Origin: Escherichia coli
GTDB taxonomy: Bacteria; Pseudomonadota; Gammaproteobacteria; Enterobacterales; Enterobacteriaceae
Direction: 5' to 3' (one strand)
Length of the DNA: 64,000 bases
Assembly (NCBI RefSeq): GCF_001677475.2
Contig: NZ_CP015229.1
The number at the start of each line of letters is the position of its first letter. Positions within the stretch are counted from its first letter, which is position 1. Position numbers and translations under genes: made by a program. The notes under the pieces are model-generated. The model did not search any database. It saw nothing but the letters and a program-made list of their open reading frames with translations, and had not been told where the DNA came from. Shown piece after piece: positions 6,886 to 64,000 of this stretch.

Positions 6886-8058
6886 TTATCGGTTTCTGTC
6901 AGCGATTAAATTCAACACCACGTAACAAACGCCTCCGGCAATTAAACCCCAAAACGCAGAACCAATCCCGACCAGTGTCAATCCACTTGCCGTTACCAGA
7001 AATGCCACCACCGCCGCGTCGCGCTCACGCTCATTATGCAGCGCCTGATACAAACTGCCGCCAATGGTACTTAACAGCGCCAGACCTGCCAGCATCTGGA
7101 TCCAACTTACGGGCAGGGCAGCCATCATCCCGGTAATGGCACTACCAAACAGACCTGCGAGCAAATAGAAAATGCCGGCAACGGCAGCTGCCAGCCAACG
7201 TTGATCTTTATCCGGATGCGCTTCCGGGCTTTGGCAAATAGCCGCGGTGATTGCCGCAATACCGACGGAATAAACGCCGAAAGGGGAAAAAACCAGTGCC
7301 AGCAATCCAGTAAATACAATTAATGGCGAAACAGGAGCTGAATATCCGGCTGCTTTCATTGCTGCGATACCCGGTGCGTTTTGCGATGCCATCGTCACCA
7401 GAAAAAGGGGGAGTGCAACGCTCAGGCTGTGAGCAAACGAAAAATCAGGGGTAATATAAGTGGGGAGAACGGGTTTAAAGACAATATCAGTTGTGACAAC
7501 GTCACCTTGCGCGATAACGATCACGATCCCAATAATCATCGCGGCAATTACCGCATAGCGCGGCGCAACGGCCCTGGTTGCCAGCCATACCAGCAACATA
7601 CTGCCACACAACGTAAATTGACCATCCAGACTGGCAAACGCCTGTAAACCAAAGCGTAATAAAATCCCGGCAAGCATTGCCGCCGCAAGCGAGTGTGGAA
7701 TAATGCGCATCAGACGAGCAAAGAGTCCCGTTATGCCGCAGAGGACTATTAACGCGTTGGTGACAATAAAAACGCCGATGGCTTCGTTAAGTGTTAGTCC
7801 CTGCAATCCGGTGACCAACAAAGCCGCGCCAGGCGTTGACCATGCGGTGAGAACAGGTACGCGATACCATAATGTCAGAGTCAGCGTACTGACGCCCATT
7901 GCCAGCCCCAGCGCCGTCATCCAGCCAGAGATTTGTGCAGTGGTGGCTCCGGCGACAATCGCTGCTTGCCAGATTATTGCCGCTGAACTGGCGTAGCCAA
8001 TTAATACCGCCAGAAACCCCGCCAGTAGCGTGGGTGGAGGAATAGAAAACAGACGCAT
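6886..8058 (-). CDS. ydcO: BenE-family inner membrane transporter YdcO
   Basis: 390 aa from ATG (complement of 8056-8058), N-terminus MRLFSIPPPTLLAGF; the 477-aa track ORF includes an upstream extension. Confidence 0.85.
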   Translation of the reverse strand: MRLFSIPPPTLLAGFLAVLIGYASSAAIIWQAAIVAGATTAQISGWMTALGLAMGVSTLTLTLWYRVPVLTAWSTPGAALLVTGLQGLTLNEAIGVFIVTNALIVLCGITGLFARLMRIIPHSLAAAMLAGILLRFGLQAFASLDGQFTLCGSMLLVWLATRAVAPRYAVIAAMIIGIVIVIAQGDVVTTDIVFKPVLPTYITPDFSFAHSLSVALPLFLVTMASQNAPGIAAMKAAGYSAPVSPLIVFTGLLALVFSPFGVYSVGIAAITAAICQSPEAHPDKDQRWLAAAVAGIFYLLAGLFGSAITGMMAALPVSWIQMLAGLALLSTIGGSLYQALHNERERDAAVVAFLVTASGLTLVGIGSAFWGLIAGGVCYVVLNLIADRNR

Positions 8059-8149
8059 AGTCACCTCGTGCGTTATAACGTACAGGTACCGTAGCATTTG
8101 TCCGTTATAACGCACAAGTGATAAACTTCCGTTTTGCCGGAGGAGTCGC

Positions 8150-8686
8150 ATGGAAAATCTCGCTCGCTTTTTATCCACCACACTTAAACAACTACGCCAG
8201 CAGCGCGGCTGGAGTCTTTCGCGATTGGCAGAAGCGACGGGCGTTTCTAAAGCGATGTTAGGGCAGATTGAGCGTAATGAATCCAGCCCGACGGTCGCGA
8301 CATTATGGAAAATTGCCACCGGGTTGAATGTGCCATTTTCGACATTTATTTCTCCGCCGCAGTCCGCAACGCCTTCAGTTTATGATCCACAACAGCAGGC
8401 GATGGTGATCACTTCGCTGTTTCCTTATGATCCACAACTCTGCTTTGAACACTTCTCGATTCAGATGGCATCTGGTGCAATAAGCGAATCGACGCCCCAT
8501 GAGAAGGGGGTAATCGAACATGTCGTCGTCATTGATGGACAACTTGATCTGTGCGTTGATGGTGAATGGCAGAGCCTTAATTGTGGGGAAGGCGCTCGAT
8601 TTGCTGCAGACGCCACGCATGTCTATCGTAATCGTGGGGAGCAAATCGTACATTTTCATTCCCTCATCCATTACCCGCGCAGTTAA
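8150..8686 (+). CDS. ydcN: HTH (XRE-type)/cupin transcriptional regulator YdcN
   Basis: 178 aa; N-terminal helix-turn-helix (SRLAEATGVSKAMLGQIERN) and C-terminal cupin-like region. Confidence 0.85.
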   Translation: MENLARFLSTTLKQLRQQRGWSLSRLAEATGVSKAMLGQIERNESSPTVATLWKIATGLNVPFSTFISPPQSATPSVYDPQQQAMVITSLFPYDPQLCFEHFSIQMASGAISESTPHEKGVIEHVVVIDGQLDLCVDGEWQSLNCGEGARFAADATHVYRNRGEQIVHFHSLIHYPRS

Positions 8687-8758
8687 GCGGGAAAACTATT
8701 TCGCAACGTCGCGCTTGTGGCTAAAATAGCCGCCATTTTTCAGCTACTGGATAAGAAT

Positions 8759-10720
8759 GTGACCGTATCTTCTCATCGACTTGAACTGTTAAGCCCGGCA
8801 CGCGATGCCGCCATTGCCCGCGAAGCTATTTTGCACGGTGCCGATGCTGTTTATATCGGCGGCCCTGGTTTTGGTGCCCGTCATAATGCCAGTAATAGCC
8901 TGAAAGATATTGCCGAGCTGGTGCCGTTTGCCCATCGTTATGGTGCAAAAATTTTCGTCACGCTTAACACCATTCTGCATGATGATGAGCTTGAACCCGC
9001 GCAACGGCTGATTACCGACCTCTACCAGACCGGCGTCGATGCGCTGATTGTTCAGGATATGGGGATTCTGGAACTTGATATTCCGCCGATTGAACTGCAC
9101 GCCAGTACGCAGTGCGACATTCGCACGGTAGAGAAAGCGAAGTTCCTTTCTGATGTTGGCTTCACGCAGATTGTGCTGGCACGAGAGCTGAATCTTGAGC
9201 AGATCCGCGCGATTCACCAGGCCACGGACGCGACCATTGAATTCTTTATTCATGGCGCACTGTGCGTGGCCTATTCGGGTCAGTGCTACATTTCTCATGC
9301 GCAAACAGGGCGTAGCGCCAACCGTGGCGATTGCTCGCAGGCGTGCCGTTTGCCATACACATTGAAAGACGATCAGGGGCGGGTGGTTTCCTATGAAAAA
9401 CATCTGCTGTCGATGAAAGATAACGATCAGACTGCCAACCTCGGCGCGCTGATTGATGCTGGCGTACGCTCCTTCAAGATTGAAGGGCGTTACAAAGATA
9501 TGAGCTACGTGAAGAATATCACCGCCCATTATCGCCAGATGCTGGATGCCATTATTGAAGAACGTAGCGATTTGGCGCGAGCTTCATCCGGTCGTACTGA
9601 GCACTTCTTCGTACCGTCGACGGAAAAAACCTTCCATCGTGGCAGCACCGACTACTTTGTTAACGCGCGTAAAGGCGATATTGGCGCATTCGATTCACCG
9701 AAATTTATCGGCCTGCCGGTGGGTGAAGTATTGAAAGTGGCGAAAGATCATCTTGATGTTGAGGTTACCGAACCGCTGGCTAACGGCGATGGACTGAACG
9801 TAATGATTAAGCGTGAAGTCGTCGGCTTTCGTGCCAACACGGTAGAGAAAACTGGGGAAAATCAGTACCGCGTCTGGCCAAATGAGATGCCAGTGGAGCT
9901 GCACAAAATTCGCCCGCACCATCCGCTTAATCGCAACCTCGACCATAACTGGCAGCAGGCGTTGACCAAAACCTCCAGCGAACGTCGGGTGGCGGTAGAC
10001 ATTGAACTGGGCGGCTGGCAGGAACAACTGATTCTGACTCTGACCAGCGAAGAGGGCGTCAGTATCACTCATACGCTGGACGGGCAGTTCGACGAAGCGA
10101 ATAACGCCGAAAAAGCACTCCTCAATCTGAAAGAGGGATTGTCGAAGCTTGGGCAAACCCTCTATTACGCCCGCGATGTGCAAATTAATTTGCCGGGGGC
10201 GCTGTTTGTACCAAACAGTCTGTTAAACCAGTTCCGCCGTGAAGCTGCCGACATGCTGGATGCTGCACGTCTTGCCAGTTACCAGCGGGGCAGCCGTAAA
10301 CCGGTTGCTGATCCTGCGCCGGTTTATCCGCAAACGCATCTGAGTTTCCTCGCGAACGTATACAACCAGAAAGCGCGTGAATTTTATCATCGCTATGGTG
10401 TGCAGCTGATTGACGCGGCGTATGAGGCACATGAAGAGAAGGGCGAAGTCCCGGTGATGATCACCAAGCATTGTCTGCGCTTTGCCTTTAATCTGTGCCC
10501 GAAACAGGCGAAAGGCAATATCAAAAGCTGGAAGGCGACGCCAATGCAACTGGTTAACGGCGATGAAGTGTTAACGCTGAAATTTGATTGCCGCCCATGC
10601 GAGATGCACGTCATTGGCAAAATCAAAAATCACATACTGAAAATGCCGTTACCGGGAAGCGTAGTGGCATCCGTAAGTCCGGATGAGCTGCTGAAAACAT
10701 TGCCGAAGCGAAAAGGGTAA
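8759..10720 (+). CDS. rlhA: Peptidase U32 family protein RlhA/YdcP (23S rRNA C2501 hydroxylation)
   Basis: 653 aa if initiated at GTG 8759, the recalled YdcP length; the track ORF begins at 8717; U32 family by sequence recall. Confidence 0.85.
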   Translation: MTVSSHRLELLSPARDAAIAREAILHGADAVYIGGPGFGARHNASNSLKDIAELVPFAHRYGAKIFVTLNTILHDDELEPAQRLITDLYQTGVDALIVQDMGILELDIPPIELHASTQCDIRTVEKAKFLSDVGFTQIVLARELNLEQIRAIHQATDATIEFFIHGALCVAYSGQCYISHAQTGRSANRGDCSQACRLPYTLKDDQGRVVSYEKHLLSMKDNDQTANLGALIDAGVRSFKIEGRYKDMSYVKNITAHYRQMLDAIIEERSDLARASSGRTEHFFVPSTEKTFHRGSTDYFVNARKGDIGAFDSPKFIGLPVGEVLKVAKDHLDVEVTEPLANGDGLNVMIKREVVGFRANTVEKTGENQYRVWPNEMPVELHKIRPHHPLNRNLDHNWQQALTKTSSERRVAVDIELGGWQEQLILTLTSEEGVSITHTLDGQFDEANNAEKALLNLKEGLSKLGQTLYYARDVQINLPGALFVPNSLLNQFRREAADMLDAARLASYQRGSRKPVADPAPVYPQTHLSFLANVYNQKAREFYHRYGVQLIDAAYEAHEEKGEVPVMITKHCLRFAFNLCPKQAKGNIKSWKATPMQLVNGDEVLTLKFDCRPCEMHVIGKIKNHILKMPLPGSVVASVSPDELLKTLPKRKG

Positions 10721-29013: not shown

Positions 29014-29040
29014 TGTATTGATTCACTTGAAGTACGAAAA
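29014..29040 (+). repeat. Prophage left terminal transposase-binding site (L1-like)
   Basis: Begins with 5'-TG; sequence matches the recalled Mu attL terminus. Confidence 0.75.
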
Positions 29041-47254: not shown

Positions 47255-47566
47255 ATGAGTGAAAAAGCAGGAACCAAAGGCGCGAAAGCCGCAAAGAACA
47301 GCGCTGCACAGGAAAACCCGGCACCGCTGGCAGACGTTATTGTGGCTGACGGTCAGGCGAATGAACCACGTCCGGCTGAAGACCCGGTTGCTGTACAGGG
47401 TGACGCCCCTGTCCGGCTGAACGTCCGGGCCGTGTCTGAAAACGGGTTCTGGCGCTGTGGCCGTTTCTGGTCACATGCCGGTGAGAATGTGGCGGTGATC
47501 GCTGCGGTTGCCACCCGCCTGATGGCAGAGCCGAATCTGATTGTCCGGGAAGCGGAGAAAGGCTGA
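47255..47566 (+). CDS. Hypothetical head-region protein
   Basis: 103 aa, Ala/Pro-rich N-terminus. Confidence 0.5.
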   Translation: MSEKAGTKGAKAAKNSAAQENPAPLADVIVADGQANEPRPAEDPVAVQGDAPVRLNVRAVSENGFWRCGRFWSHAGENVAVIAAVATRLMAEPNLIVREAEKG

Positions 47567-48003
47567 TGGGGTACATCACGCAGGAAGACCTGTTACGCGC
47601 GGACGGCAATCTTGTCTGGAACATGGCGATTAACCGGGAAACCAACGGGCTGGACGAGGACAAAATCCGTCAGGCCATCAGTGATGCCGAAGCGGAAATT
47701 GATTCGTTTCTGTCCCGCCGCTACCAGCTGCCGCTGGGAGTGACGGAAATCCCGCGCCCGCTGCAACGCGTGGCAGTATCGCTGGCGTTTTACTGGTTGT
47801 CAGAGCGTGACAATCAAATCACTGAGCTGATCCAGAAACGCTACGACGACGCCATTAAAACCCTGCGTGAGATGGCGAACGGCACCCGTGACCTGGGTCT
47901 GCCGACGTATGCCACCCCGGCAGAAACCGACCACGGGAAGATCATTGTAGTGGGTGCCAATGCCCGGCTGTTCACCCGTAACAACCTGAAAGGGGTGCTG
48001 TGA
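47566..48003 (+). CDS. Mu gp36-like protein (DUF1320 family)
   Basis: 145 aa; position. Confidence 0.6.
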   Translation: MGYITQEDLLRADGNLVWNMAINRETNGLDEDKIRQAISDAEAEIDSFLSRRYQLPLGVTEIPRPLQRVAVSLAFYWLSERDNQITELIQKRYDDAIKTLREMANGTRDLGLPTYATPAETDHGKIIVVGANARLFTRNNLKGVL

Positions 48004-48545
48004 TGGGGATTTCTGTACAGGTCAGCGGTGACCAGCGTCTGGAGGATATCCGCCGCGCCGTTGAAAAGCTGGCAGATGGTTCATTGCAGGCAGAGCTGCT
48101 GGAAAGCATCGGTGCGGTGGTGGAATCACAGACCCGCCGCCGCATCATCGATGAGAAAACCAGTCCGGGTGGCGAACGCTGGCCGGACTGGTCTGACGGG
48201 TACAAAAAGACCCGCCACGGCAACCAGAGTCTGCTGCGCGGTGAAGGCCATCTGCTGGAGAGTATCCAGTACATCGTGGAAAACCGTGTGGTGCGTATCG
48301 GTTCACCGCTGGATTATGCCCGCATCATGAATGACGGCTTTTCCGGCAGTGTGCCGGTCAGCGCCCACAAACGGCTTATCTCGCAGTGTTTCGGGCGGGC
48401 GCTGAAATATCCGGTCTGGCAGACCGTCGGCGCACATAACCGCATGATGAACATTCCACAACGTGAATTTCTGGGGCTGTCTTCTGCCAACCAGCAGGAG
48501 CTGCAACAGGTTATCAGTCATTTCTGGAAGGAGGTTCTGCCATGA
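48000..48545 (+). CDS. Virion morphogenesis protein (Mu G family)
   Basis: 181 aa; sequence character of Mu G-like late proteins. Confidence 0.75.
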   Translation: MMGISVQVSGDQRLEDIRRAVEKLADGSLQAELLESIGAVVESQTRRRIIDEKTSPGGERWPDWSDGYKKTRHGNQSLLRGEGHLLESIQYIVENRVVRIGSPLDYARIMNDGFSGSVPVSAHKRLISQCFGRALKYPVWQTVGAHNRMMNIPQREFLGLSSANQQELQQVISHFWKEVLP

Positions 48546-49153
48546 CAGAACAACGCCCTGAACTGCGCACACCGGGGAGCACCGTTGCGGCCGCAGAGCG
48601 CATTGTGGCCTGGCTGAAAACAGCACTTCAGGGGAAAACCCCTGACCGGGCCGACGTGGTGGAGCGTCACATCGGCCAGTTCAACAGCCCGGAAGAAGTG
48701 AAGCGCTATCTGTCCGGTCGTACCGGCTGTATCCGGGTAGCTGCCCTGCGTGTCCGGGATATCAACCCGCGCGGCGGGCTGTCCGGTCTGGTCACCTGGG
48801 TGGCTTACATCATGGCAACGGATTCGTGGGGGTATTCCCGCGACGTGCGCTGTGAAGTGCTGGCCGAAAAGGTGATCAAACGCCTGCTGTCGTCGGATGC
48901 CACAGCGGGCATGGGGGCTGAACGCATGGCCGCTGATGTGCGGGCAGACAACATTTACTCCGCCAGCCTCGACGGGCTGGGTGTCACCATGTGGGCGGTG
49001 ACGTGGGAGCAGGAATTTCAGCTGGATGAAGAGATTGATCTCGCCGCGCTCCCGGACTTCCTGCGCCTCGGAGCGACGCTGCGCAGCGGTGAACATACTG
49101 AGATTAACGACGTGATCCATGTACGGGGTGACGATGGAACAGAAACTGATTAA
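48542..49153 (+). CDS. Mu gp37-like protein
   Basis: 203 aa; position. Confidence 0.6.
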   Translation: MTEQRPELRTPGSTVAAAERIVAWLKTALQGKTPDRADVVERHIGQFNSPEEVKRYLSGRTGCIRVAALRVRDINPRGGLSGLVTWVAYIMATDSWGYSRDVRCEVLAEKVIKRLLSSDATAGMGAERMAADVRADNIYSASLDGLGVTMWAVTWEQEFQLDEEIDLAALPDFLRLGATLRSGEHTEINDVIHVRGDDGTETD

Positions 49154-56834: not shown

Positions 56835-57900
56835 AATCCCCACGCTGGGCAAACTGATTGCCGACGGCGAAAAAGATATTGCGTATGAACTCGGCCTGCA
56901 AAAGCTGCCGCCTGTCAGTGTTGAGCAGGCACTGAACGTGTCATTCAGCAGTCAGGTCCGGGATTTATACGACCATCAGAGCTGGATTAAGGACCAGATA
57001 ATTCCGTCCACCGCGTCTGATGATGAAACCATTATCAAAACAGCAACGTATGAAGGGGTTATCCGCAAGCAGGCCACCTTTGCCAGCGGGCCGGTGACCT
57101 TCACCAGTCAGTCCCCCATTCCGGCAGAAACCCGGATGCAGTACGACACGAATCAGGTGTATCAGGTACTCACATCCGGCGAGGTACAGAACGGCGAGGT
57201 CACTGTCATCGTGCAGGCTGAAGAAGCCGGTGTTGCGGGCAATCTTGCTGCCGGTGCCGTGCTGACCCTGCTGTCCCCGTTGCCCGGAACGGGCAGCACA
57301 GGCGCGGTGACTGAAAGTGGCATCACCGGTGGCGCAGATATCGAATCCATCGCAGAGCTGCTGGACCGTCTGCTGTATGTGCGCCGTAATCCCCCGGTAG
57401 GTGGTGCGCTGCATGACTACGTGATATGGGCGCGTGAAGTGCCGGGCGTCAGCCGTGCGTGGGCGTGGGATGCGTGGCACGGCCCCGGCACGGTCGGGCT
57501 GGCATGGCTTTATGATGACCGTGAAGACATTATCCCCACACGGGACGACCTGAAGACCATGGAGCAGTATCTGTTCTGCCACAAACACCCGGCCACCGGC
57601 GTGATGGTGGGCAAACCGGGCGGCATCGAGGTCTGGCCGGTACAGGTCAGGCTGAAGAAAATCGACCTGTCCATCCGTCTGACACCGGACAGCCAGGCGA
57701 ACAGGAACGCCGTCCGGGCAAACCTGACCGCATTACAGAAAACGCTGGCCCCCGGTCAGATGCTGCCGGTGTCCTCGCTGCGCACGGCCATCGGTATGAC
57801 GTCCGGTATCACGGATTACTTTCTTAACATCGGGGAAGACACCACCAGTGATGTGGATGAGCTTATCACCATCGGGGAGGTGACATGGCTCACAGCGTGA
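56824..57900 (+). CDS. Baseplate J-like protein (Mu gp47 family)
   Basis: 358 aa from ATG 56824 overlapping the preceding stop. Confidence 0.8.
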   Translation: MPYEIPTLGKLIADGEKDIAYELGLQKLPPVSVEQALNVSFSSQVRDLYDHQSWIKDQIIPSTASDDETIIKTATYEGVIRKQATFASGPVTFTSQSPIPAETRMQYDTNQVYQVLTSGEVQNGEVTVIVQAEEAGVAGNLAAGAVLTLLSPLPGTGSTGAVTESGITGGADIESIAELLDRLLYVRRNPPVGGALHDYVIWAREVPGVSRAWAWDAWHGPGTVGLAWLYDDREDIIPTRDDLKTMEQYLFCHKHPATGVMVGKPGGIEVWPVQVRLKKIDLSIRLTPDSQANRNAVRANLTALQKTLAPGQMLPVSSLRTAIGMTSGITDYFLNIGEDTTSDVDELITIGEVTWLTA

Positions 57901-58469
57901 CGGAATGGCTGACCGCACTGCAACAGGTCATGCCACGGGGTAAGGCATGGCCTCGTGATAACGACGCGGATTTAAACCGCTTTTTAAGGGCACTGGCAGA
58001 GCGTTTAACCCGCGTTGAATACGATGCCTCGCGCCTGCATGTGGAGATGCGACCGGAAACCACGCTCCAGCTGCTGCCGGAGTGGGAGCAATATCTGGCG
58101 CTGCCGGAATGCGGAATTGCCGCCACCACAACGGAAGCCCGCCGCCGGGCCGTTGTGGAGAAATACCGCCGCAAAGGCGGGCTGGCAACCTGGCAGATTG
58201 AAGCCGCTGCGGCGGCGCTGGGCTTCACCATTAAGGTGACGGCCGTTCTGCCGCACCACTGCCTGCGTGACTGCATGTACCCGCTGCATCCGGCACGGTA
58301 TCGCTGGCTGCTGAAAGTGGAAGTCCCGGACAACGATGCCGGGCGGTTTACCTGTATTGATGACGTCATGACGCCATTAATCAGCGAACGTACCCGCGAG
58401 CTGGAATGCCTGCTGAAGCATTACCGGCTGGCGGGTACGGAATATGAATATTATTACACCGGAGAATAA
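57885..58469 (+). CDS. Baseplate/tail protein (Mu gp48 family)
   Basis: 194 aa. Confidence 0.75.
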   Translation: MAHSVTEWLTALQQVMPRGKAWPRDNDADLNRFLRALAERLTRVEYDASRLHVEMRPETTLQLLPEWEQYLALPECGIAATTTEARRRAVVEKYRRKGGLATWQIEAAAAALGFTIKVTAVLPHHCLRDCMYPLHPARYRWLLKVEVPDNDAGRFTCIDDVMTPLISERTRELECLLKHYRLAGTEYEYYYTGE

Positions 58470-58472
58470 TTT

Positions 58473-59468
58473 ATGTTTCACGTGGACAATAATACGGGTG
58501 TGCCTGTTATGCCGCCTGTTGCGGCTGAATTAAGCAAAACAACGCTTTATTTCACCGAAGGCGGGAACGGTATTCCACCCACTTATCCAGGACCAGACTG
58601 GTTTAATATTATTCAGTCTGAATTACTGAAAATTCTCGAAGAAGCCGGAATAACGCCGGATAAAGCAGATACCGGTCAGATAATGGCAGCCCTGAAAAAA
58701 CAGTTTATTACGAACAGTGGTTCAGCCGGAGCTATTGCCGGATTAACCGGTGAGAATAATACGTTCCCGTATTTTACCGGCGAAGACACAATGGCATTAA
58801 CGCCGCTCAGTGCGTTTGTGCGCAGTATTCTTGGAAAAAACAGCGGCAGTGAGTTTATTAAAGCAATTGGCCTGTCACCGGACACCCTTTTATCATCAGG
58901 GCGAATAACAGCATTAAGCGGTGGCTCACAGGGAGCAACCGGACTTCAGATGTACGAAGCGTATAACAACGGCTATCCCATTCCATACGGCAATGTGCTG
59001 CATCTGAAGGGGGGGACAGCGTCAGGTGAAGGCGAATTACTGATTGGCTGGAGTGGCACAAGTGGTGCACATGCCCCGGTTTACATCCGCTCAAGACGAG
59101 ACAATGACGAGGCGGAATGGTCTGAATGGGCACAGGTTTTTACCTCAAAAGACAGTTTCAACGCAGCAACTGCTACAAAACTCCAGACAGCCCGCAAGAT
59201 TAATAATGTGGCATTTGATGGCACCAGCGATATCACCATCAGCAGTACCGATTCTGGTGCTGTGCGTGATTTCAGATACACCAGCGAAGTGTTTCACAAT
59301 CCCGGAGGTAACGAAATCACCTGGACGTTTCGCGCGCCCTCAGGTTGCGTTTTGTCAGGTATTTACGTTCAGGAAACGGGAAGAAGTTCTTCGGATAACA
59401 TCGGCGGCGTGTATTACAAACAAACTCAGGTTTATATCAATGGCTCATGGCGCACCGTATCCGGTTAA
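58473..59468 (+). CDS. Tail fibre protein 1 (Mu S-like N-terminus)
   Basis: 331 aa; N-terminus MFHVDNNTGVPVMPP...FTEGGNGIPP resembles the conserved N-terminal part of Mu S / P2 H fibres. Confidence 0.7.
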   Translation: MFHVDNNTGVPVMPPVAAELSKTTLYFTEGGNGIPPTYPGPDWFNIIQSELLKILEEAGITPDKADTGQIMAALKKQFITNSGSAGAIAGLTGENNTFPYFTGEDTMALTPLSAFVRSILGKNSGSEFIKAIGLSPDTLLSSGRITALSGGSQGATGLQMYEAYNNGYPIPYGNVLHLKGGTASGEGELLIGWSGTSGAHAPVYIRSRRDNDEAEWSEWAQVFTSKDSFNAATATKLQTARKINNVAFDGTSDITISSTDSGAVRDFRYTSEVFHNPGGNEITWTFRAPSGCVLSGIYVQETGRSSSDNIGGVYYKQTQVYINGSWRTVSG

Positions 59469-59482
59469 TTAAGGAGAAAATA

Positions 59483-60013
59483 ATGGAACTCAGAAACGTC
59501 ACGCGTTATTACCCGGAAGAAATGCCTTATGGTGAAAACATTCAGTATTTCCGCAGTGAAGACGGACAGGATTTTTATGAATCACTGGATAAATTCACGA
59601 AGAAATACAAATTGTGTATTCACCCTGACACAGGCGTGATTTTTTCGATGGCGGAAGATGTGTCCCGTCTTTATCCGGCTGGTTTCACTATTGTGGAAGT
59701 GGACGAACTGCCGGAGGGTTTTGGCATTGAAGCCTGCTGGTATTACCTGGATGGCGAAGTGCTGCCGGTTCCGGTTGATTATTCGCAACTGGCAGAAAAG
59801 CAACGCCAGCGTCTTCTGGCTGAAGCCAGGGACATCACCTCCGACTGGCGAACCGAGCTGGATCTGGGCACCATCAGCGACGATGACAAAGCCCGTCTTA
59901 CGCAGTGGATGGCATATATCAAAGCGGTGAAGGCGCTGGATTTAAGCACCGTTACTGATGAAGCCTCCTTTAATGCCATCAACTGGCCGGAGCGTCCCGA
60001 TGCCGCAGCTTAA
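59483..60013 (+). CDS. Tail fibre assembly chaperone 1
   Basis: 176 aa from ATG 59483 with AAGGAG Shine-Dalgarno; follows fibre 1. Confidence 0.65.
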   Translation: MELRNVTRYYPEEMPYGENIQYFRSEDGQDFYESLDKFTKKYKLCIHPDTGVIFSMAEDVSRLYPAGFTIVEVDELPEGFGIEACWYYLDGEVLPVPVDYSQLAEKQRQRLLAEARDITSDWRTELDLGTISDDDKARLTQWMAYIKAVKALDLSTVTDEASFNAINWPERPDAAA

Positions 60014-62249
60014 AGGTGTGATTAAAACGCCCACGGGAGAAGCGCTGGGCGGCGCAACCATTACTCTGACCTCCCTGCACAACCGTGCAGGGATCCTGAA
60101 AGGTGTTTTCAGCCACGTAACCACACAGAGCGGGGAGTACGACTTTTCCGTTCAGCCGGGTGTGTACAGCGTTCGCCTGACACAAAGCGAACAGCGCCTT
60201 TCAGAAATCGGTGTCATTCGTGTTTATGAAGATTCACAGGACGGTTCACTGAATGATTTTCTGGGTGCAACCGATATTGACCTGCGCCCGGAAGCCCTGA
60301 AGAAATTCGAAGAACTGGCGCAACAGGCGCAGCAAAGCGCGGAAGAAGCCGGAGAGCACGCGGACGCGGCTGAACAGGCCCGCCAGGATACAGAAACCCT
60401 CGCCGGGGAAATACGGCAGGATGCAGAAGAAATTGCAGGCAATGTGCAGAAAGCTGAAGAGCTTGCCTCTGAAACCAGTCAGAATGCAGCCCGCGCAGAG
60501 CAGGCCGTTAAGGATGCCGACACGATAGTCCGGAAAGCGGTCGATAAACTTGCTGATGCTGCAACGCTGACCGGCGAGGCAAAAGCCAGTGCCAAAGCTG
60601 CCGCACAAAGCGAACAGAATGCGGAAAATCACGCTGATAATGCAGCACAAAGCGCACAGCAGACCGCACAGGATGTGCAGGCAACGGTAACAGCCCGCAG
60701 TGATGCGGAACGTTTTGCGGGTGAGGCAGAAAACAGCGCACAGTCATCAGGCACAGCGCGGGACGAATCAGTCGATGCCGCCGAACGCGCCCGCCTTTAT
60801 CATAATGCCGCATCATCAGCTGCAACCAGCGCGGAAAATGCAGCAAATGCTGCACTCGGGCATGAAAACAGCGCCGCCGAATACGCCCGACAGGCTAAAG
60901 CCAGCCAGGATGCAGGTGCAGACAATGCGCAGGAAGCGAAACAGTACAGGGATGAGGCGCAGCAGATAGTTGATGACCTGAATGCAACAAATGCCTCCAC
61001 GACAGAAAAAGGTCTGGTGCAACTGTGTAGTGATACGGACAACGACAGCGAGGAACTGGCTGCCACGCCAAAGGCTGTCAAAACCGTCATGGACGAGACG
61101 AAAACAAAAGCGCCACTGGACAGCCCGGCCTTCACCGGCACCCCAACCACCCCAACCCCACCGGATGATGCCGCCGGTCTGGAAGCAGCGAACGCAGCGT
61201 TTGTGCGCAAACTGCTTGCTGCGCTGGTTGGCTCATCGCCGGAAGTTCTGGACACCCTGAACGAGCTGGCAGCGGCGCTGGGCAATGACCCGAACTTTGC
61301 GACGACAATCACAAACGCGCTGGCAGGCAAACAACCGCTTAATGACGTCTTAACGGCAATCAGCGCACTGACGCAACGGGCAGATAATCTTCTGTACTTC
61401 AATACAGACGGGAATGCCTCACTGTCTCTGCTGTCAGAGAAGGGCCGCGCATTGCTGGCGCATGACACGGCTGAAGCCATGCGCACGGAGCTTGAGCTGA
61501 GCACGGCTGCGACGATGGAACCCCAGAGTGATATCCGTGACCGCACACCGGGCAGGCTGGCCCTGTCCGGGATGTATGGGTTTGGACAGGCATTCACCAG
61601 CGCCGAAGCTCTGTCATTTAACGGACAGGCTGATTTCGTTATATGGCTGCAGACAGTCACCCCGGGGCGTTATGCGGTCAGTATTGCGGACTCCTCCACG
61701 CTGCTGGTGGGCACCACGAAATTTAACGGTATCATTGATGTGATGTGGTCACCCTCTGATAACGATGGTTCAGACTCAGCGCGTAAATTCAAAACGCTGC
61801 TGTACTACAACCAGTATTACGAGGATGAGCACAGCATACATTGTATGCGTTATCGCTACAGTGGTAACAGCTGGAATGCAACATCAAGCCTTATTGTGTA
61901 TGACGGCAACTCCCTGGCATATCTGATGTCCTCAACCGCCGGTAATGGTCCGTTCTCATATTACCAATACCCGGCCGTCGGTGTGCCGATTATGGCGGTA
62001 TATCAGGGAGAAAGTTTTGGTGAAAATGCTTCTCTGGGACTCGGTGATACTGTGCCGGGTTCCCGTCTTGGTCCTCTGGCCATGAGTGCACAGGTTAGTG
62101 ATACAGGGACATACGCATCCTCACCGCAGGTTGTGATTGGCGGTGCCGGTGAATACAACTTCCCCGGTCGTTACACGGCGCTTTCGGGCCTGGGTAACAA
62201 TTATGGTACTCAGCGTGGCTTTATCGGTCTTTTTGTACGCATTGAGTAA
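60000..62249 (+). CDS. Tail fibre protein 2 (lambda Stf-like side tail fibre)
   Basis: 749 aa from ATG 60000; N-terminus (KGVIKTPTGEALGGATITL, YEDSQDGSLNDFL) and central region (ELAATPKAVKTVMDETKTKAPLDSPAFTGTPT, LNELAAALGNDPNFATTITNALAGKQP) match recalled lambda Stf; Ala/Glu/Gln-rich repeat shaft. Confidence 0.8.
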   Translation: MPQLKGVIKTPTGEALGGATITLTSLHNRAGILKGVFSHVTTQSGEYDFSVQPGVYSVRLTQSEQRLSEIGVIRVYEDSQDGSLNDFLGATDIDLRPEALKKFEELAQQAQQSAEEAGEHADAAEQARQDTETLAGEIRQDAEEIAGNVQKAEELASETSQNAARAEQAVKDADTIVRKAVDKLADAATLTGEAKASAKAAAQSEQNAENHADNAAQSAQQTAQDVQATVTARSDAERFAGEAENSAQSSGTARDESVDAAERARLYHNAASSAATSAENAANAALGHENSAAEYARQAKASQDAGADNAQEAKQYRDEAQQIVDDLNATNASTTEKGLVQLCSDTDNDSEELAATPKAVKTVMDETKTKAPLDSPAFTGTPTTPTPPDDAAGLEAANAAFVRKLLAALVGSSPEVLDTLNELAAALGNDPNFATTITNALAGKQPLNDVLTAISALTQRADNLLYFNTDGNASLSLLSEKGRALLAHDTAEAMRTELELSTAATMEPQSDIRDRTPGRLALSGMYGFGQAFTSAEALSFNGQADFVIWLQTVTPGRYAVSIADSSTLLVGTTKFNGIIDVMWSPSDNDGSDSARKFKTLLYYNQYYEDEHSIHCMRYRYSGNSWNATSSLIVYDGNSLAYLMSSTAGNGPFSYYQYPAVGVPIMAVYQGESFGENASLGLGDTVPGSRLGPLAMSAQVSDTGTYASSPQVVIGGAGEYNFPGRYTALSGLGNNYGTQRGFIGLFVRIE

Positions 62250-62263
62250 TGAGGAAATCAGGC

Positions 62264-62839
62264 ATGAAAATCAGAGCGGTGAAAGGTATCAGAAACGCAC
62301 ATTATCTTGAAAATGGTGCGGTTGACTGCGAGGTGTTATTTGAAGGTGAAACGGAGTTCGCCCTGTATACTGCCATACAGGATGATATGGCCCCGACAGG
62401 CCAGCACATCTGGCAGGAGCTGCAAAGCGGGAAATGGGGCGAAATCGCCCCGTTCACCGTCACGCCGGAACTTATTGCAGCGGCAAAGGATGCCAAAAGG
62501 CGGGAAATTGAGGCATGGCGCGACAGTCAGGAAAACGTTGAGTTTATTTTCACGTTTGATGGCCGTCGTTTTGATGGCGGAAAAACCTCGCAGTCACGCC
62601 TTGCCCCCGTGGTTGCAGCAGCGCAGGCCGGACTGCTTCCGGAGGGATTTTTCTGGACTGATGCGGATAATAACAACGTCGTACTGACCAGGGAGAAACT
62701 TATTGCGCTGAACGATGCCATGATGGTGGCCATGGTGGCGGAGGGCTTTAAAATCCACGAACGCCAGCGCGAGATGAAAGAGCAACTTTCCCTGCTGTCC
62801 ACACTGAGCGATATAAGAGCGTTAACGCCCGGTTATTAA
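62264..62839 (+). CDS. Tail fibre assembly chaperone 2
   Basis: 191 aa from ATG 62264 with GAGGA Shine-Dalgarno (alternative ATG 62249 overlaps the fibre stop). Confidence 0.6.
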   Translation: MKIRAVKGIRNAHYLENGAVDCEVLFEGETEFALYTAIQDDMAPTGQHIWQELQSGKWGEIAPFTVTPELIAAAKDAKRREIEAWRDSQENVEFIFTFDGRRFDGGKTSQSRLAPVVAAAQAGLLPEGFFWTDADNNNVVLTREKLIALNDAMMVAMVAEGFKIHERQREMKEQLSLLSTLSDIRALTPGY

Positions 62840-62863
62840 GTCATCATTTTGTATAGTTTATAA

Positions 62864-62887
62864 CGATCGATACAATCGTATCGATCG
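62864..62887. promoter_or_regulatory. GATC-containing inverted repeat upstream of com/mom; candidate Dam-methylation-sensitive operator
   Basis: CGATCGATAC-AATC-GTATCGATCG; two GATC sites at 62865-62868 and 62883-62886, about 75-100 bp upstream of com. Confidence 0.5.
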
Positions 62888-62961
62888 TCAGTTTGCATCA
62901 TCTGTGATTAAATACCCTGGCCCTCAGGGCTATCGTATCTGGTTAATACACAGGTGGGATC

Positions 62962-63147
62962 ATGGATGCTGTTCGTTGTAAAAACTGCAATAAATTGCTG
63001 TTTAAAGGAAGTTTTAAGCATATAGAAATCAAATGCCCTCGTTGTAAACGTTACATTGTCATGTCGAGTGCCCGGGAGCATCCCACGGAGCTGTATTGTG
63101 GGAAAAGAGAAGAAATCACGCATCCTTACAAAACCCTGCGTTATTGA
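62962..63147 (+). CDS. com: Com zinc-finger translational activator of mom
   Basis: 61 aa; CKNC...CPRC...C..H zinc-finger pattern as in Mu Com; overlaps the mom start. Confidence 0.8.
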
Positions 63148-63793
63148 GTATGAAGGCCGTATTGTCGGCTATGGTTCAAGGGAACTGCGCGTTGAAACCA
63201 TATCCTGCTGGCTGGCCCGCACAATCATTCAGACAAAGCACTATTCCCGCCGTTTTGTGAATAACTCCTGGTTGCATCTGGGGGTATTCAGCGGACGTGA
63301 TCTGGTTGGCGTTCTCCAGTGGGGATACGCCCTTAATCCCAACTCAGGGCGTCGGGTCGTGCTGGAAACGGATAACCGGGGCTATATGGAACTGAACCGC
63401 ATGTGGTTACACGACGACATGCCCCGCAACTCTGAATCACGGGCTATCAGCTACGCACTGAAAACCATCAGGTTACTGTATCCATCAGTGGAGTGGGTTC
63501 AGTCCTTTGCAGACGAACGCTGCGGACGTGCAGGTGTTGTGTATCAGGCATCTAATTTTGATTTTATTGGTAGCCATGAAAGCACGTTCTACGAGCTGGA
63601 CGGCGAGTGGTATCACGAGATAACGATGAACGCGATTAAGCGTGGAGGACAACGAGGCGAGTATTTGCGGGCTAATAAGGAGCGGGCGGTGGTACACAAA
63701 TTTAATCAGTATCGCTACATCAGATTCCTGAACAAGCGCGCAAAAAAGCGACTAAATACTAAGCTATTCAGGATTCAGCCATACCCGAAGTGA
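63098..63793 (+). CDS. mom: Mom DNA modification protein
   Basis: 231 aa if initiated at GTG 63098 (Mu Mom length) with GGAG 7 nt upstream; the track ORF starts at TTG 63056; overlaps com. Confidence 0.8.
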
Positions 63794-63815
63794 TCCCACG
63801 TAATGAATAAAAAAG

Positions 63816-63835
63816 CAGCGGCCAATGCCGCTGTT

Positions 63836-63839
<4 letters not shown>
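63816..63839 (+). terminator. Rho-independent terminator after mom
   Basis: CAGCGGC-CAAT-GCCGCTG hairpin followed by TTTTAT. Confidence 0.6.
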
Positions 63840-63999
<160 letters not shown>

Positions 64000-64000
64000 A

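Follow-up and report, generated by a model that had tools for sequence, protein, structure and literature searches.

We identify a lineage of Mu-like E. coli prophages that has no Gin/G-segment switch and that, judging from its genes, probably produces two different fiber sets together and carries both on the same virion. In the 64,000-nucleotide stretch of Escherichia coli DNA that we analyzed (contig NZ_CP015229.1, hereafter the window), four intact genes on the same strand, which we call F1, C1, F2 and C2, lie between a gp48-like baseplate gene and com/mom.

Results

The window contains a Mu-like transposable prophage that spans positions 29014 to about 63919 and is directly adjoined by P1-like DNA. 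Within it, all on the + strand, a gene for a Mu gp48-like baseplate wedge protein of the YmfQ family (57885-58469) is followed by F1 (58473-59468), a short Mu S-type tail fiber of 331 aa; C1 (59483-60013; translation might instead start further upstream, at the in-frame ATG 59447), a Mu U-type tail fiber assembly protein of 176 aa; F2 (60000-62249; reading frame open from 59958), a 749-aa fiber whose N-terminal half is of the lambda Stf type and whose distal domain is distinct; and C2 (62264-62839; alternative ATG at 62249), a 191-aa DUF4376 protein. These are the two complete same-strand fiber-plus-chaperone modules in tandem that an earlier sequence-only reading of the locus had described, and the open reading frames lie exactly where it placed them. 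A ribosome-binding site of the GGAG/GAGG type lies ahead of each gene in the region, and the fiber-region genes are separated by 14-nt gaps or overlap by 14 nt, as C1 and F2 do. From the fiber genes through mom, no + strand terminator of any strength was found ahead of a bidirectional terminator-like hairpin after mom (63816-63835), the first convincing terminator 3' of the fiber genes.

To the right of C2, a + strand spacer (62840-62961) leads to com (62962-63147, + strand) and mom (63056 or 63068 to 63793, + strand), whose products are 69% and 95% identical to those of Mu; three GATC sites lie in the spacer region (62865, 62883 and 62958). Mu similarity in this prophage resumes just right of the spacer: the megablast match to Mu/D108/SfMu begins at 62972, and the com/mom DNA is 89% identical to its Mu-type counterpart. 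Apart from mom, a Mu-like level of identity is found only in the early region (A and gam, 92% each), the late region from terminase through the fibers being a divergent Mu-like module with 26-50% amino acid identity to Mu. Judged by these identities, the prophage combines a distinct late-gene lineage with mom and an early region of the Mu/D108 kind and is not Mu with a swapped G segment. The proposal that the two modules replace the invertible G segment holds by position only, the divergence extending over the whole late region.

The wedge protein is 30-31% identical to Mu gp48 over its full length and matches phrog_203 (baseplate wedge). In Mu, the gp49 N-terminus docks on loop 133-155 of gp48, and there are six gp48 docking loops for six S fibers (PMC11915804). 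The N-terminal anchor of F1 is S-like (39.5% identity between its residues 1-124 and residues 1-124 of Mu S, E = 2e-21), its middle part resembles P1 S (residues 124-248, 62-65% identity to P1/P7 S), and its C-terminal tip is of the S type (residues 259-330 align at the C-terminal end of phrog_6859, in which Mu S is also found). F1 and Mu S both have phrog_1833 as their best-matching family, and a PDB search matched F1 to Mu S (5yvq/9ki1) at E = 1.7e-22. C1 matches the Pfam family Caudo_TAP (PF02413, E = 1.7e-21), has the same top family as Mu U (phrog_136), and is 24% and 31% identical over its full length to Mu U and Mu U', respectively, with a PDB match to Mu U (5yvq_B) at E = 2.5e-14. By these matches F1 and C1 are homologs of Mu S and U, in agreement with the earlier description of this module.

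F2 carries the Pfam domains phage_tail_N (aa 4-129), CarboxypepD_reg (aa 4-76) and Phage_fiber_2 (aa 333-372), the same three families found in lambda orf-401, with which it also has phrog_8713 and phrog_2636 in common, and an alignment of its N-terminal half with lambda Stf contains an invariant VYEDS.PG.LNDFL motif. The protein begins with a collar/anchor domain (60000-60290, + strand, about aa 1-97), an Ig-like beta-sandwich whose strands cover residues 3-75 in an AF2 model of 200 residues. The top three PDB fold matches of F2 are all fiber-anchoring collar domains, namely the Ur-lambda Stf collar (9e7m; TM 0.82 normalized to the target, 36% identity), the XM1 neck collar spike (7kjk) and the A-1(L) neck fiber (8keg); sequence matches in the PDB agree with the fold (7kjk, E = 5.8e-10; 9e7m, E = 1.8e-9), and the match to XM1 gp40 spans residues 3-187. 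A coiled-coil shaft follows (60288-60995, + strand, about aa 97-330), modeled as one helix over residues 97-199, rich in Ala, Glu and Gln (28%, 12% and 10%) and encoded by DNA with imperfect 41-nt repeats and an AT skew of up to 0.41. The distal variable region (61500-62246, + strand, about aa 501-749), presumed to be receptor-binding, matches no Pfam family and bears no relation to the C-terminus of lambda Stf; the portrayal of F2 as lambda Stf-like is thus accurate for its N-terminal half but not for its distal part. The central part of F2 is 84-86% identical at the nucleotide level to lambdoid stf genes, which indicates that exchange with the lambdoid Stf pool is real.

The gene after F2 had been taken for the fiber's own chaperone, with lambda Tfa as the expected relative. 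C2 matches the Pfam family DUF4376 (PF14301, E = 1.5e-19) and phrog_1141 and neither of the lambda Tfa families PF02413 and phrog_105; the relation to Tfa was therefore rejected in favor of the DUF4376 class, and a chaperone role is still presumed. DUF4376 proteins encoded after fiber genes are demonstrated fiber chaperones in the Alteromonas phages V22 and A5 (PMC7289586, PMC10579305). Because the C2 model has no significant match among solved structures, its role is argued from Pfam family, gene position and co-variation; C2 presumably serves the F2 tip as its cognate chaperone or cap.

Invertase-free copies of the order gp48-F1-C1-F2-C2-com-mom are also present in related IMG/VR loci and, at different insertion sites, in E. 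coli genomes. The F2 anchor domain follows F1 and C1 in 19 of the 19 close IMG/VR loci with sequence reaching past gp48; 13 of these loci extend to C2, 14 extend to com/mom, and none has a Gin match. RM9088, 2014-01-7375 and ETEC1732 have the same gene order, and OkiPb01701 has the same fiber gene order but a different baseplate and no com/mom; the phage collection that we searched contains no cultured phage of the lineage. That the arrangement recurs in the 19 loci and, inserted at unrelated sites, in several complete E. coli genomes contradicts the idea of a one-off mosaic acquisition in this genome. All four genes are under purifying selection (dN/dS 0.14-0.51) and free of stop codons in four relatives, and both fiber genes are intact in the window.

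Across loci, the F1 N-terminus is 85-96% identical (72% in the IS-disrupted L041) and the F2 anchor domain 69-97%; the F2 distal region is 27-78% identical among the IMG/VR relatives and near-identical in RM9088. By these comparisons, lambdoid exchange touches the shaft and tip of F2, whereas its anchor domain is stably kept in the lineage. Within each module, tip and chaperone identity rise and fall together (F2 tip with C2, rho = 0.69, p = 0.02, n = 11; F1 tip with C1, rho = 0.75, p = 0.05), with no correlation between either tip and the chaperone of the other module, in a sample of few, phylogenetically related loci. In L002, the block from the F1 C-terminus through C1, F2 and C2 moves as one onto a different baseplate. 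F2 is truncated in L006, L020 and L042, so it may be dispensable, or those prophages may be decaying. More distant relatives (L030-L038) have two tandem fibers, both with S-like anchors.

The claim that the window encodes no serine recombinase was upheld for Gin-like invertases: a tblastn search with Mu Gin gave a best E value of 1.5 over the whole window, and, as a positive control, the same query recovered a Gin of 75% identity from L008, another Mu-like prophage. No other recombinase was found among the unassigned ORFs of the prophage. The closest gix/hix/cix-like site in the window scores 17/26 and is located outside the fiber region, compared with 26/26 at both boundaries of the Mu G segment. 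Between 57800 and 64000, no meaningful inverted repeat was detected (the longest are 14-23 nt and 74-93% complementary), none brackets any fiber segment, and no fiber or chaperone coding segment lies antisense; both modules read the same way, and each fiber has its own N-terminus.

Discussion

Our data favor the view that this locus is the host-recognition end of a late operon from which, we infer, both fibers are expressed together. Six F1 trimers would dock as Mu S does, with the S-like N-terminus seated on the gp48-like wedge protein, and C1 would fold the S-type tip of F1 and perhaps remain on it. F2 would form a second, longer fiber, with an Ig-like collar, about 230 residues of coiled coil, a fiber repeat and a variable distal domain, and C2 would act at its tip. 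Since the F2 N-terminus is unrelated to S, F2 could not use the gp48 docking site and would have to attach elsewhere. In solved virions, collar domains of this kind encircle either the tail tube, as in the siphophages Ur-lambda and Bxb1, or the neck, as in the myophages XM1 (gp40) and A-1(L) (gp5); by this analogy, F2 would most likely sit at the neck or at some other exposed collar position, although the neck proteins of the prophage have no detectable sequence similarity to those of XM1. Two receptor-binding proteins displayed at once, rather than in alternation, would widen the host range, and recombinational swapping of each fiber tip with its own chaperone would diversify it. Of the two interpretations offered earlier, a fixed dual-fiber virion is the better supported, given two intact modules, purifying selection and a pair that is conserved across the lineage.

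An unlikely variant keeps both fibers on the virion and places F2 at the baseplate end, either branching from F1 or C1 or sitting on another wedge protein, for which two baseplate fiber sets (Sf14) and branched fibers (DT57C) offer precedents. The F2 gene closes the baseplate/fiber operon, right after C1 and overlapping it; in L002 the whole block from the F1 C-terminus to C2 sits together on another baseplate; myophages with two baseplate-attached fiber sets exist; and the tandem fibers of L030-L038 both have S-like anchors. However, all solved relatives of the F2 anchor ring the tail axis or neck and none branches on a fiber, F1 tip and F2 anchor identity show no positive correlation, and F1, through its S-like N-terminus, should already occupy the docking site on gp48.

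Somewhat less probable still is that F2 and C2 are a passenger side-tail-fiber cassette from resident lambdoid prophages, unmountable on a contractile Mu-type tail and with no role in the virion. The nucleotide similarity to lambdoid stf genes and the truncations of F2 in some relatives fit such an origin, as does the fact that the lambda collar docks at the gpV/gpM junction of a non-contractile tail, a site that a sheathed tail hides. Yet the anchor is the most conserved part of F2 and is kept on two baseplate backgrounds (L002 versus the rest), dN/dS is 0.23-0.51, tips and chaperones are exchanged as functional units, and homologous collars mount fibers at the neck of the contractile-tailed XM1 and A-1(L). 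Din-family invertases can complement one another and P1-like DNA abuts the prophage, but it is most improbable that an invertase acting in trans, such as Cin of that element or a cryptic-prophage Pin, inverts part of the region so that the window displays just one of two orientations, given the poor crossover-site match, the lack of repeats around any fiber segment and the two same-direction modules with separate fiber N-termini.

With both fibers on one virion as the preferred reading, the closest comparison is with Mu, D108 and SfMu, in which the fiber genes occupy the same place, between the gp47/gp48 baseplate genes and com/mom. The S-type anchor and tip family of F1, the U-type C1 and the adjoining com and mom are common to these phages, whereas Mu has S-U, an inverted S'-U', Gin and gix sites and this prophage has a second module on the same strand with its own unrelated N-terminus; F1 is also shorter than Mu S (331 versus 504 aa). 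Lambda (Ur-lambda) Stf shares with F2 the PF08400 collar, the coiled-coil shaft, the Phage_fiber_2 repeat and stretches of 46-58% amino acid identity, but F2 belongs to a contractile Mu-type tail, ends in a different distal part and is followed by a DUF4376 gene instead of tfa. Vibrio phage XM1 gp40 and cyanophage A-1(L) gp5 share with F2 a homologous Ig-like domain at the N-terminus, which leads into a long helix that assembles as a trimeric coiled coil; the distal part of gp40 is a tailspike, while that of F2 is fiber-like with a separate chaperone, and the prophage neck proteins resemble those of Mu. C2 is similar to V22 gp27 and A5 gp9 in its Pfam domain, its size (191 versus 195-239 aa) and its position directly after a fiber gene, although the Alteromonas phages differ in host, phage type and fiber. 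Finally, Shigella phage Sf14 (gp52/gp53) and T4, with its long and short fibers, also display two tandem-encoded receptor-binding fiber types together rather than alternating them. Their two sets are anchored to the baseplate through related N-termini, and the two anchors of the prophage are unrelated, one being of the collar type; two fixed fiber sets instead of a flip-flop switch would represent a modest variation on known phage biology.

Results

The fibre region of this prophage most likely works like a constitutive two-fibre adsorption apparatus, unlike the Mu G switch. It comprises four intact genes on the + strand: a first fibre gene, F1 (58473-59468, 331 aa), with its chaperone gene, C1 (59483-60013, 176 aa), and a second fibre gene, F2 (60000-62249, 749 aa), with its own presumed chaperone gene, C2 (62264-62839, 191 aa). 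A Mu gp48-like wedge gene (57885-58469) lies upstream of F1, and com (62962-63147) and mom (ending at 63793) follow C2 after a 122-nt spacer. Each of the four start codons is provided with a GGAG/GAGG-type ribosome-binding site, the genes are spaced by 14-nt gaps or a 14-nt overlap, with C2 starting 15 nt past the F2 stop codon, and no + strand terminator of any strength was found before a hairpin at 63816-63835, downstream of mom. Given these binding sites, the tight spacing and the lack of an earlier terminator, F1, C1, F2 and C2 seem to form the distal part of the baseplate operon. The sequence-only reading had placed two complete same-strand modules here, followed directly by com and mom, in place of the invertible segment, and this arrangement holds at the nucleotide positions it gave; neither fibre gene is a pseudogene. 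The spacer itself (62840-62961) contains three GATC sites (62865, 62883 and 62958), which bring to mind the Mu mom promoter and its Dam/OxyR-controlled upstream region, and falls outside the megablast match to Mu at the nucleotide level.

By homology, F1 and C1 are members of the Mu S/U families. Residues 1-124 of F1 are 39.5% identical to Mu S, the protein matches the Mu S structure in the PDB (5yvq/9ki1, E = 1.7e-22), and phrog_1833 is the top PHROG of F1 and Mu S alike; a Pfam search of F1 matched no family. Its middle part (residues 124-248) resembles P1/P7 S at 62-65% identity, and its last ~70 residues share their tip family (phrog_6859) with Mu S, to which they also align directly, if weakly. 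The product of the gene immediately 3' of F1, C1, matches Caudo_TAP (PF02413, E = 1.7e-21) and the Mu U structure (5yvq_B, E = 2.5e-14), and aligns over its full length with Mu U and U' at 24-31% identity. The wedge protein encoded upstream is 30% identical to Mu gp48, so that, as for Mu S (gp49), an S-like anchor directly follows a gp48-type wedge gene and has a Caudo_TAP protein downstream. In Mu, cryo-EM has revealed six trimers of gp49 (S), docked through their N-termini on a gp48 loop (PMC11915804). Since F1 has the Mu S N-terminus and adjoins a gp48 homologue, F1 with C1 would be the baseplate equivalent of Mu S/U, and F1 would be expected from this homology to dock on the gp48-like loop in the manner of Mu.

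The second fibre is of a different kind. Its Pfam families are phage_tail_N (PF08400, aa 4-129), CarboxypepD_reg and Phage_fiber_2 (aa 333-372), exactly the three found in lambda orf-401, the N-terminal half of Stf, with which F2 also has phrog_8713 and other PHROG families in common; in an alignment of F2 with lambda Stf, the motif VYEDS.PG.LNDFL is invariant. For residues 1-200, an AF2 model (pLDDT 77) predicts a beta-sandwich at residues 3-75 and a single long helix at 97-199. The best PDB fold matches of this model are all fibre anchors: first the Ur-lambda Stf collar (9e7m, TM 0.82 normalised to the target, 36% identity), second the 'collar spike' gp40 at the neck of XM1 (7kjk, Foldseek E = 3.4e-6) and third the A-1(L) neck fibre (8keg), with the Bxb1 tail collar fibres lower in the list. 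Sequence searches agree, matching 9e7m at E = 1.8e-9 and, by phmmer, 7kjk at E = 5.8e-10 over residues 3-187. F2 thus combines the PF08400 collar domain of the lambda Stf type with a subsequent coiled coil and Phage_fiber_2 repeat, and its Ig-like N-terminal domain, homologous to that of XM1 gp40, is likewise followed by a coiled coil. Two features of the lambda system are missing. No Tfa (PF02413 / phrog_105) assembly protein is encoded downstream, and a 12-mer collar at the tube/distal-tail junction of a non-contractile tail does not apply, since the virion genes are of Mu type, with a sheath (41% identical to Mu L), a gp44-48-type baseplate and no gpV/gpM context. We therefore describe F2 as a member of the Stf N-terminal family that departs from lambda in its helper and its virion context.

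The presumed chaperone encoded after F2 differs from that of lambda. C2 matches DUF4376 (PF14301, E = 1.5e-19) and phrog_1141, and it has no match to PF02413, to phrog_105 or, by BLASTP, to lambda Tfa; a relationship to Tfa was rejected, the common ground being only the chimeric phrog_1807, which the two proteins match through non-overlapping parts. Proteins with a DUF4376 domain encoded just 3' of fibre genes have been described as a new class of fibre chaperones or caps in the Alteromonas phages V22 and A5 (PMC7289586, PMC10579305), and gp27 of V22 is needed for fibre folding or trimerisation (PMC7289586). C2 has both the domain and the position directly after a fibre gene and so fits this class, and its co-variation with the fibre suggests that it pairs specifically with the F2 tip. 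From family, position and co-variation taken together, C2 probably folds or caps the tip of F2. An alignment of the C2 family shows almost no variation in residues 1-90, and residues ~90-165, the DUF4376 core, differ between fibre-tip types, suggesting a conserved N-terminal module joined to a tip-specific DUF4376 module. The AF2 model of C2 is reasonable (pLDDT 82), and a PDB fold search with it gave no significant match (best E > 0.05), its resemblance to a prefoldin-like helical hairpin being not significant. An NCBIfam search of the five proteins matched no family.

The fibres and chaperones had been proposed to be a Mu S-like fibre and a lambda Stf-like fibre, each with its own chaperone. 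Searches against Mu S/U and lambda Stf/Tfa uphold the first pair entirely; for the second, the Stf-like fibre is confirmed by the Pfam trio and 9e7m, but its helper belongs to DUF4376 and not to the Tfa family.

We found no sign of an inversion switch. A tblastn search of the whole 64-kb window with Mu Gin returned nothing (best E = 1.5), and the same query detects the 75%-identical Gin of a related locus, L008. The best window match to the 26-bp gix sequence is 17/26, far from the fibres and outside the region; as a control, the same search recovers 26/26 at both G-segment boundaries of Mu. The core AAACCNNGGTTT, allowing at most one mismatch, occurs four times against 2.25 expected, with a single, degenerate occurrence in the fibre region. 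Only short, imperfect inverted repeats occur in 57800-64000, none of which brackets the variable parts of the fibres, and PHROG scans of the prophage ORFs that have no Mu counterpart found no recombinase. The region therefore departs from the Mu-type invertible segment (G/C/P/Min family, Din invertases) in all three features that define the switch: there is no serine invertase (gin/cin/pin) beside the fibre genes, no inverted pair of 26-34 bp crossover sites of the gix/cix/hix type, and no opposed sets of tip and chaperone on one constant N-terminus, both modules being on the + strand with unrelated N-termini. The search for a hidden invertase was thus negative throughout, in the Gin tblastn and PHROG scans, in the gix/hix/cix pattern searches with their Mu control and in the inverted-repeat search. 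The earlier claim that the window has no invertase is thus borne out, and neither a gin gene nor inverted repeats flanking the fibres came to light when both were sought.

The same architecture recurs across a lineage. In complete E. coli genomes, the order is a YmfQ-type wedge, a short fibre, an assembly protein, a 'prophage tail fiber N-terminal domain' protein, DUF4376, com and mom, at different insertion sites. RM9088 is 96.7% identical at the nucleotide level across the whole region, the prophage adjoins fic/yhfG in 2014-01-7375 and is inserted in flhA in ETEC1732, and OkiPb01701 has a quite different baseplate and lacks com/mom. Of 5426 complete E. coli genomes, 48 carry the lineage wedge gene, at up to four copies each. 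An IMG/VR scan with the wedge protein yielded 32 loci; all 19 close relatives that reach F2 carry F1, C1 and the F2 anchor in order, 13 of these continuing to C2 and 14 to com/mom, and none of the close loci has a Gin match. Among phage records, none shows the full architecture and none covers F1 beyond 55%, and we found neither a published description of the lineage or its architecture nor a cultured phage.

Across these loci the anchors are conserved, and the distal parts and chaperones vary. The F1 N-terminus is 85-96% identical, except in the IS-disrupted locus L041 (72%), and the F2 N-terminus is 69-97% identical. Identity of the F2 tip correlates with that of C2 (rho = 0.69, p = 0.02, n = 11) and identity of the F1 tip with that of C1 (rho = 0.75, p = 0.05, n = 7), statistics that are suggestive only because the loci are related to one another; cross pairs are uncorrelated (F2 tip with C1, rho = 0.29, not significant). 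In comparison with four relatives, all four genes are intact, with dN/dS of 0.14-0.51.

Several loci depart from this pattern. F2 is truncated or annotated as a pseudogene in L006, L020 and L042, the last of which (E. coli 23CRST050, 7001-9057) also has a longer wedge (YmfQ-family) gene, of 324 aa, separated from the F1 homologue by an additional 352-aa hypothetical gene. In L017 (11888-13705), F2 is 605 aa long, keeps the anchor and has another distal domain (phrog_13714), and there is no C2/DUF4376 gene. In RM9088, the closest relative (L001, 10699-16601), mom is split by nested IS21-like (ISEc12) and IS66-family insertions. In the more distant loci L030-L038, whose wedge is ~60% identical, two tandem fibres both have an S-like N-terminus, with a Tfa-type gene between them and no Gin (e.g. 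L038, 10585-14609); two fibres are obtained here by another route, and the pair would compete for a single docking site. Finally, L008 (7000-9533) belongs to a Mu-like phage inside O157 Stx1a/Stx2c-converting phages, and its Gin adjoins an inverted fibre tip and chaperone. Since L008 retains Gin, invertase-bearing and invertase-free Mu-like lineages coexist in E. coli.

A comparison with all Mu proteins revealed a mosaic prophage. Amino acid identity to Mu is 92% for A and gam, 77% for B, 81% for gemA and 95% for mom; it is 26-50% for all head, tail and baseplate proteins detected, in a late-region gene order fully syntenic with Mu. Similarity to Mu/D108 at the nucleotide level is limited to the early region and com/mom, resuming at 62972; it follows that the fibre region is the end of another Mu-like morphogenetic module that has recombined with a Mu-like early region and mom. 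The idea that this is Mu with its G segment swapped is ruled out, as the whole late region diverges from Mu. Within the prophage (29014-63919), the late head, tail and baseplate region has a higher G+C content (~58-60%), and the repressor matches Mu c at only 30% identity.

Window positions 1-29013 are E. coli chromosome, 97.6% identical to E. coli genomes, the left flank lying within a hypothetical or 'Rhs'-annotated gene. The prophage then begins at 29014 with the canonical Mu/D108 attL, TGTATTGATTCACTTGAAG..., and ends near 63919. On the right, the flank (63920-64000) matches pmgC of P1-like phage-plasmids at 97.5-100% identity, beginning exactly at the prophage end (63919/63920). The 5 bp beside the two ends differ (GCGAT vs TATAC), so there is no target duplication of a simple insertion, and no E. 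coli record was found in which both flanks are adjacent. Flanks from different replicons fit a Mu-mediated cointegrate or recombination between two prophage copies, and they fit an assembly misjoin as well. The right end itself (63838-63919) differs from the canonical Mu attR of L004, L005 and L022: it contains three TATCTTGAA(T/A)AA repeats and two GCGCGCTT motifs and terminates ...GCGCGCTTTA, with a terminal TA rather than CA. An identical variant end occurs in L015 and L041 next to different flanking DNA, and it is therefore a genuine element end.

Discussion

A Stf-type collar domain on a Mu-type virion poses the concrete structural question of where it docks. Ur-lambda has four trimeric fibres, held by a ring of twelve collar domains around the gpV/gpM junction (PMC12617516). 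XM1 is a contractile phage, and its six gp40 trimers use an Ig-like domain, with a 100-residue coiled coil after it, to bind the head-completion and tail-terminator proteins of the neck (PMC10457771). Because a sheathed Mu-type tail hides the tube/tip junction, and because both myophage precedents put the collar domain at the neck, F2 would most plausibly give a second set of fibres with an anchor other than the gp48 site, the neck being favoured. Attachment of F2 at the baseplate end is a live alternative. The neck genes of the prophage include a gp36-like one at 47566-48003 and two more at 48000-48545 and 48542-49153. Searches with the neck genes matched Mu gp36 or gave no informative hit, and no sequence link between the prophage neck proteins and those of XM1 was found. 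Going beyond a neck-anchored F2, it is conceivable, if on balance doubtful, that the lineage may have swapped the phase-variable switch of Mu for permanent two-tier adsorption, combining S-type baseplate fibres with a neck-anchored Stf-like ring whose collar domain was borrowed from the lambdoid side-tail-fibre pool. If true, this would be the first Mu-type virion with neck fibres, and a natural case of a single anchoring domain serving both non-contractile tails and the necks of contractile tails.

Our findings do not overturn current understanding; tandem receptor-binding modules, gin-less Mu-like phages and mosaic fibres are already familiar. The pattern of a conserved anchor and a swappable tip with its own chaperone should be useful for predicting or engineering the host range of contractile phages and tailocins. 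Mu stands in textbooks as the example of a phage that controls its host range by inverting DNA. Close relatives with the transposition genes and mom of Mu no longer have the switch and would carry two different receptor-binding fibres simultaneously, so that alternation and simultaneous display emerge as two interchangeable strategies within one phage group, with Sf14 and T4 as parallels for the constitutive two-fibre adsorption apparatus.
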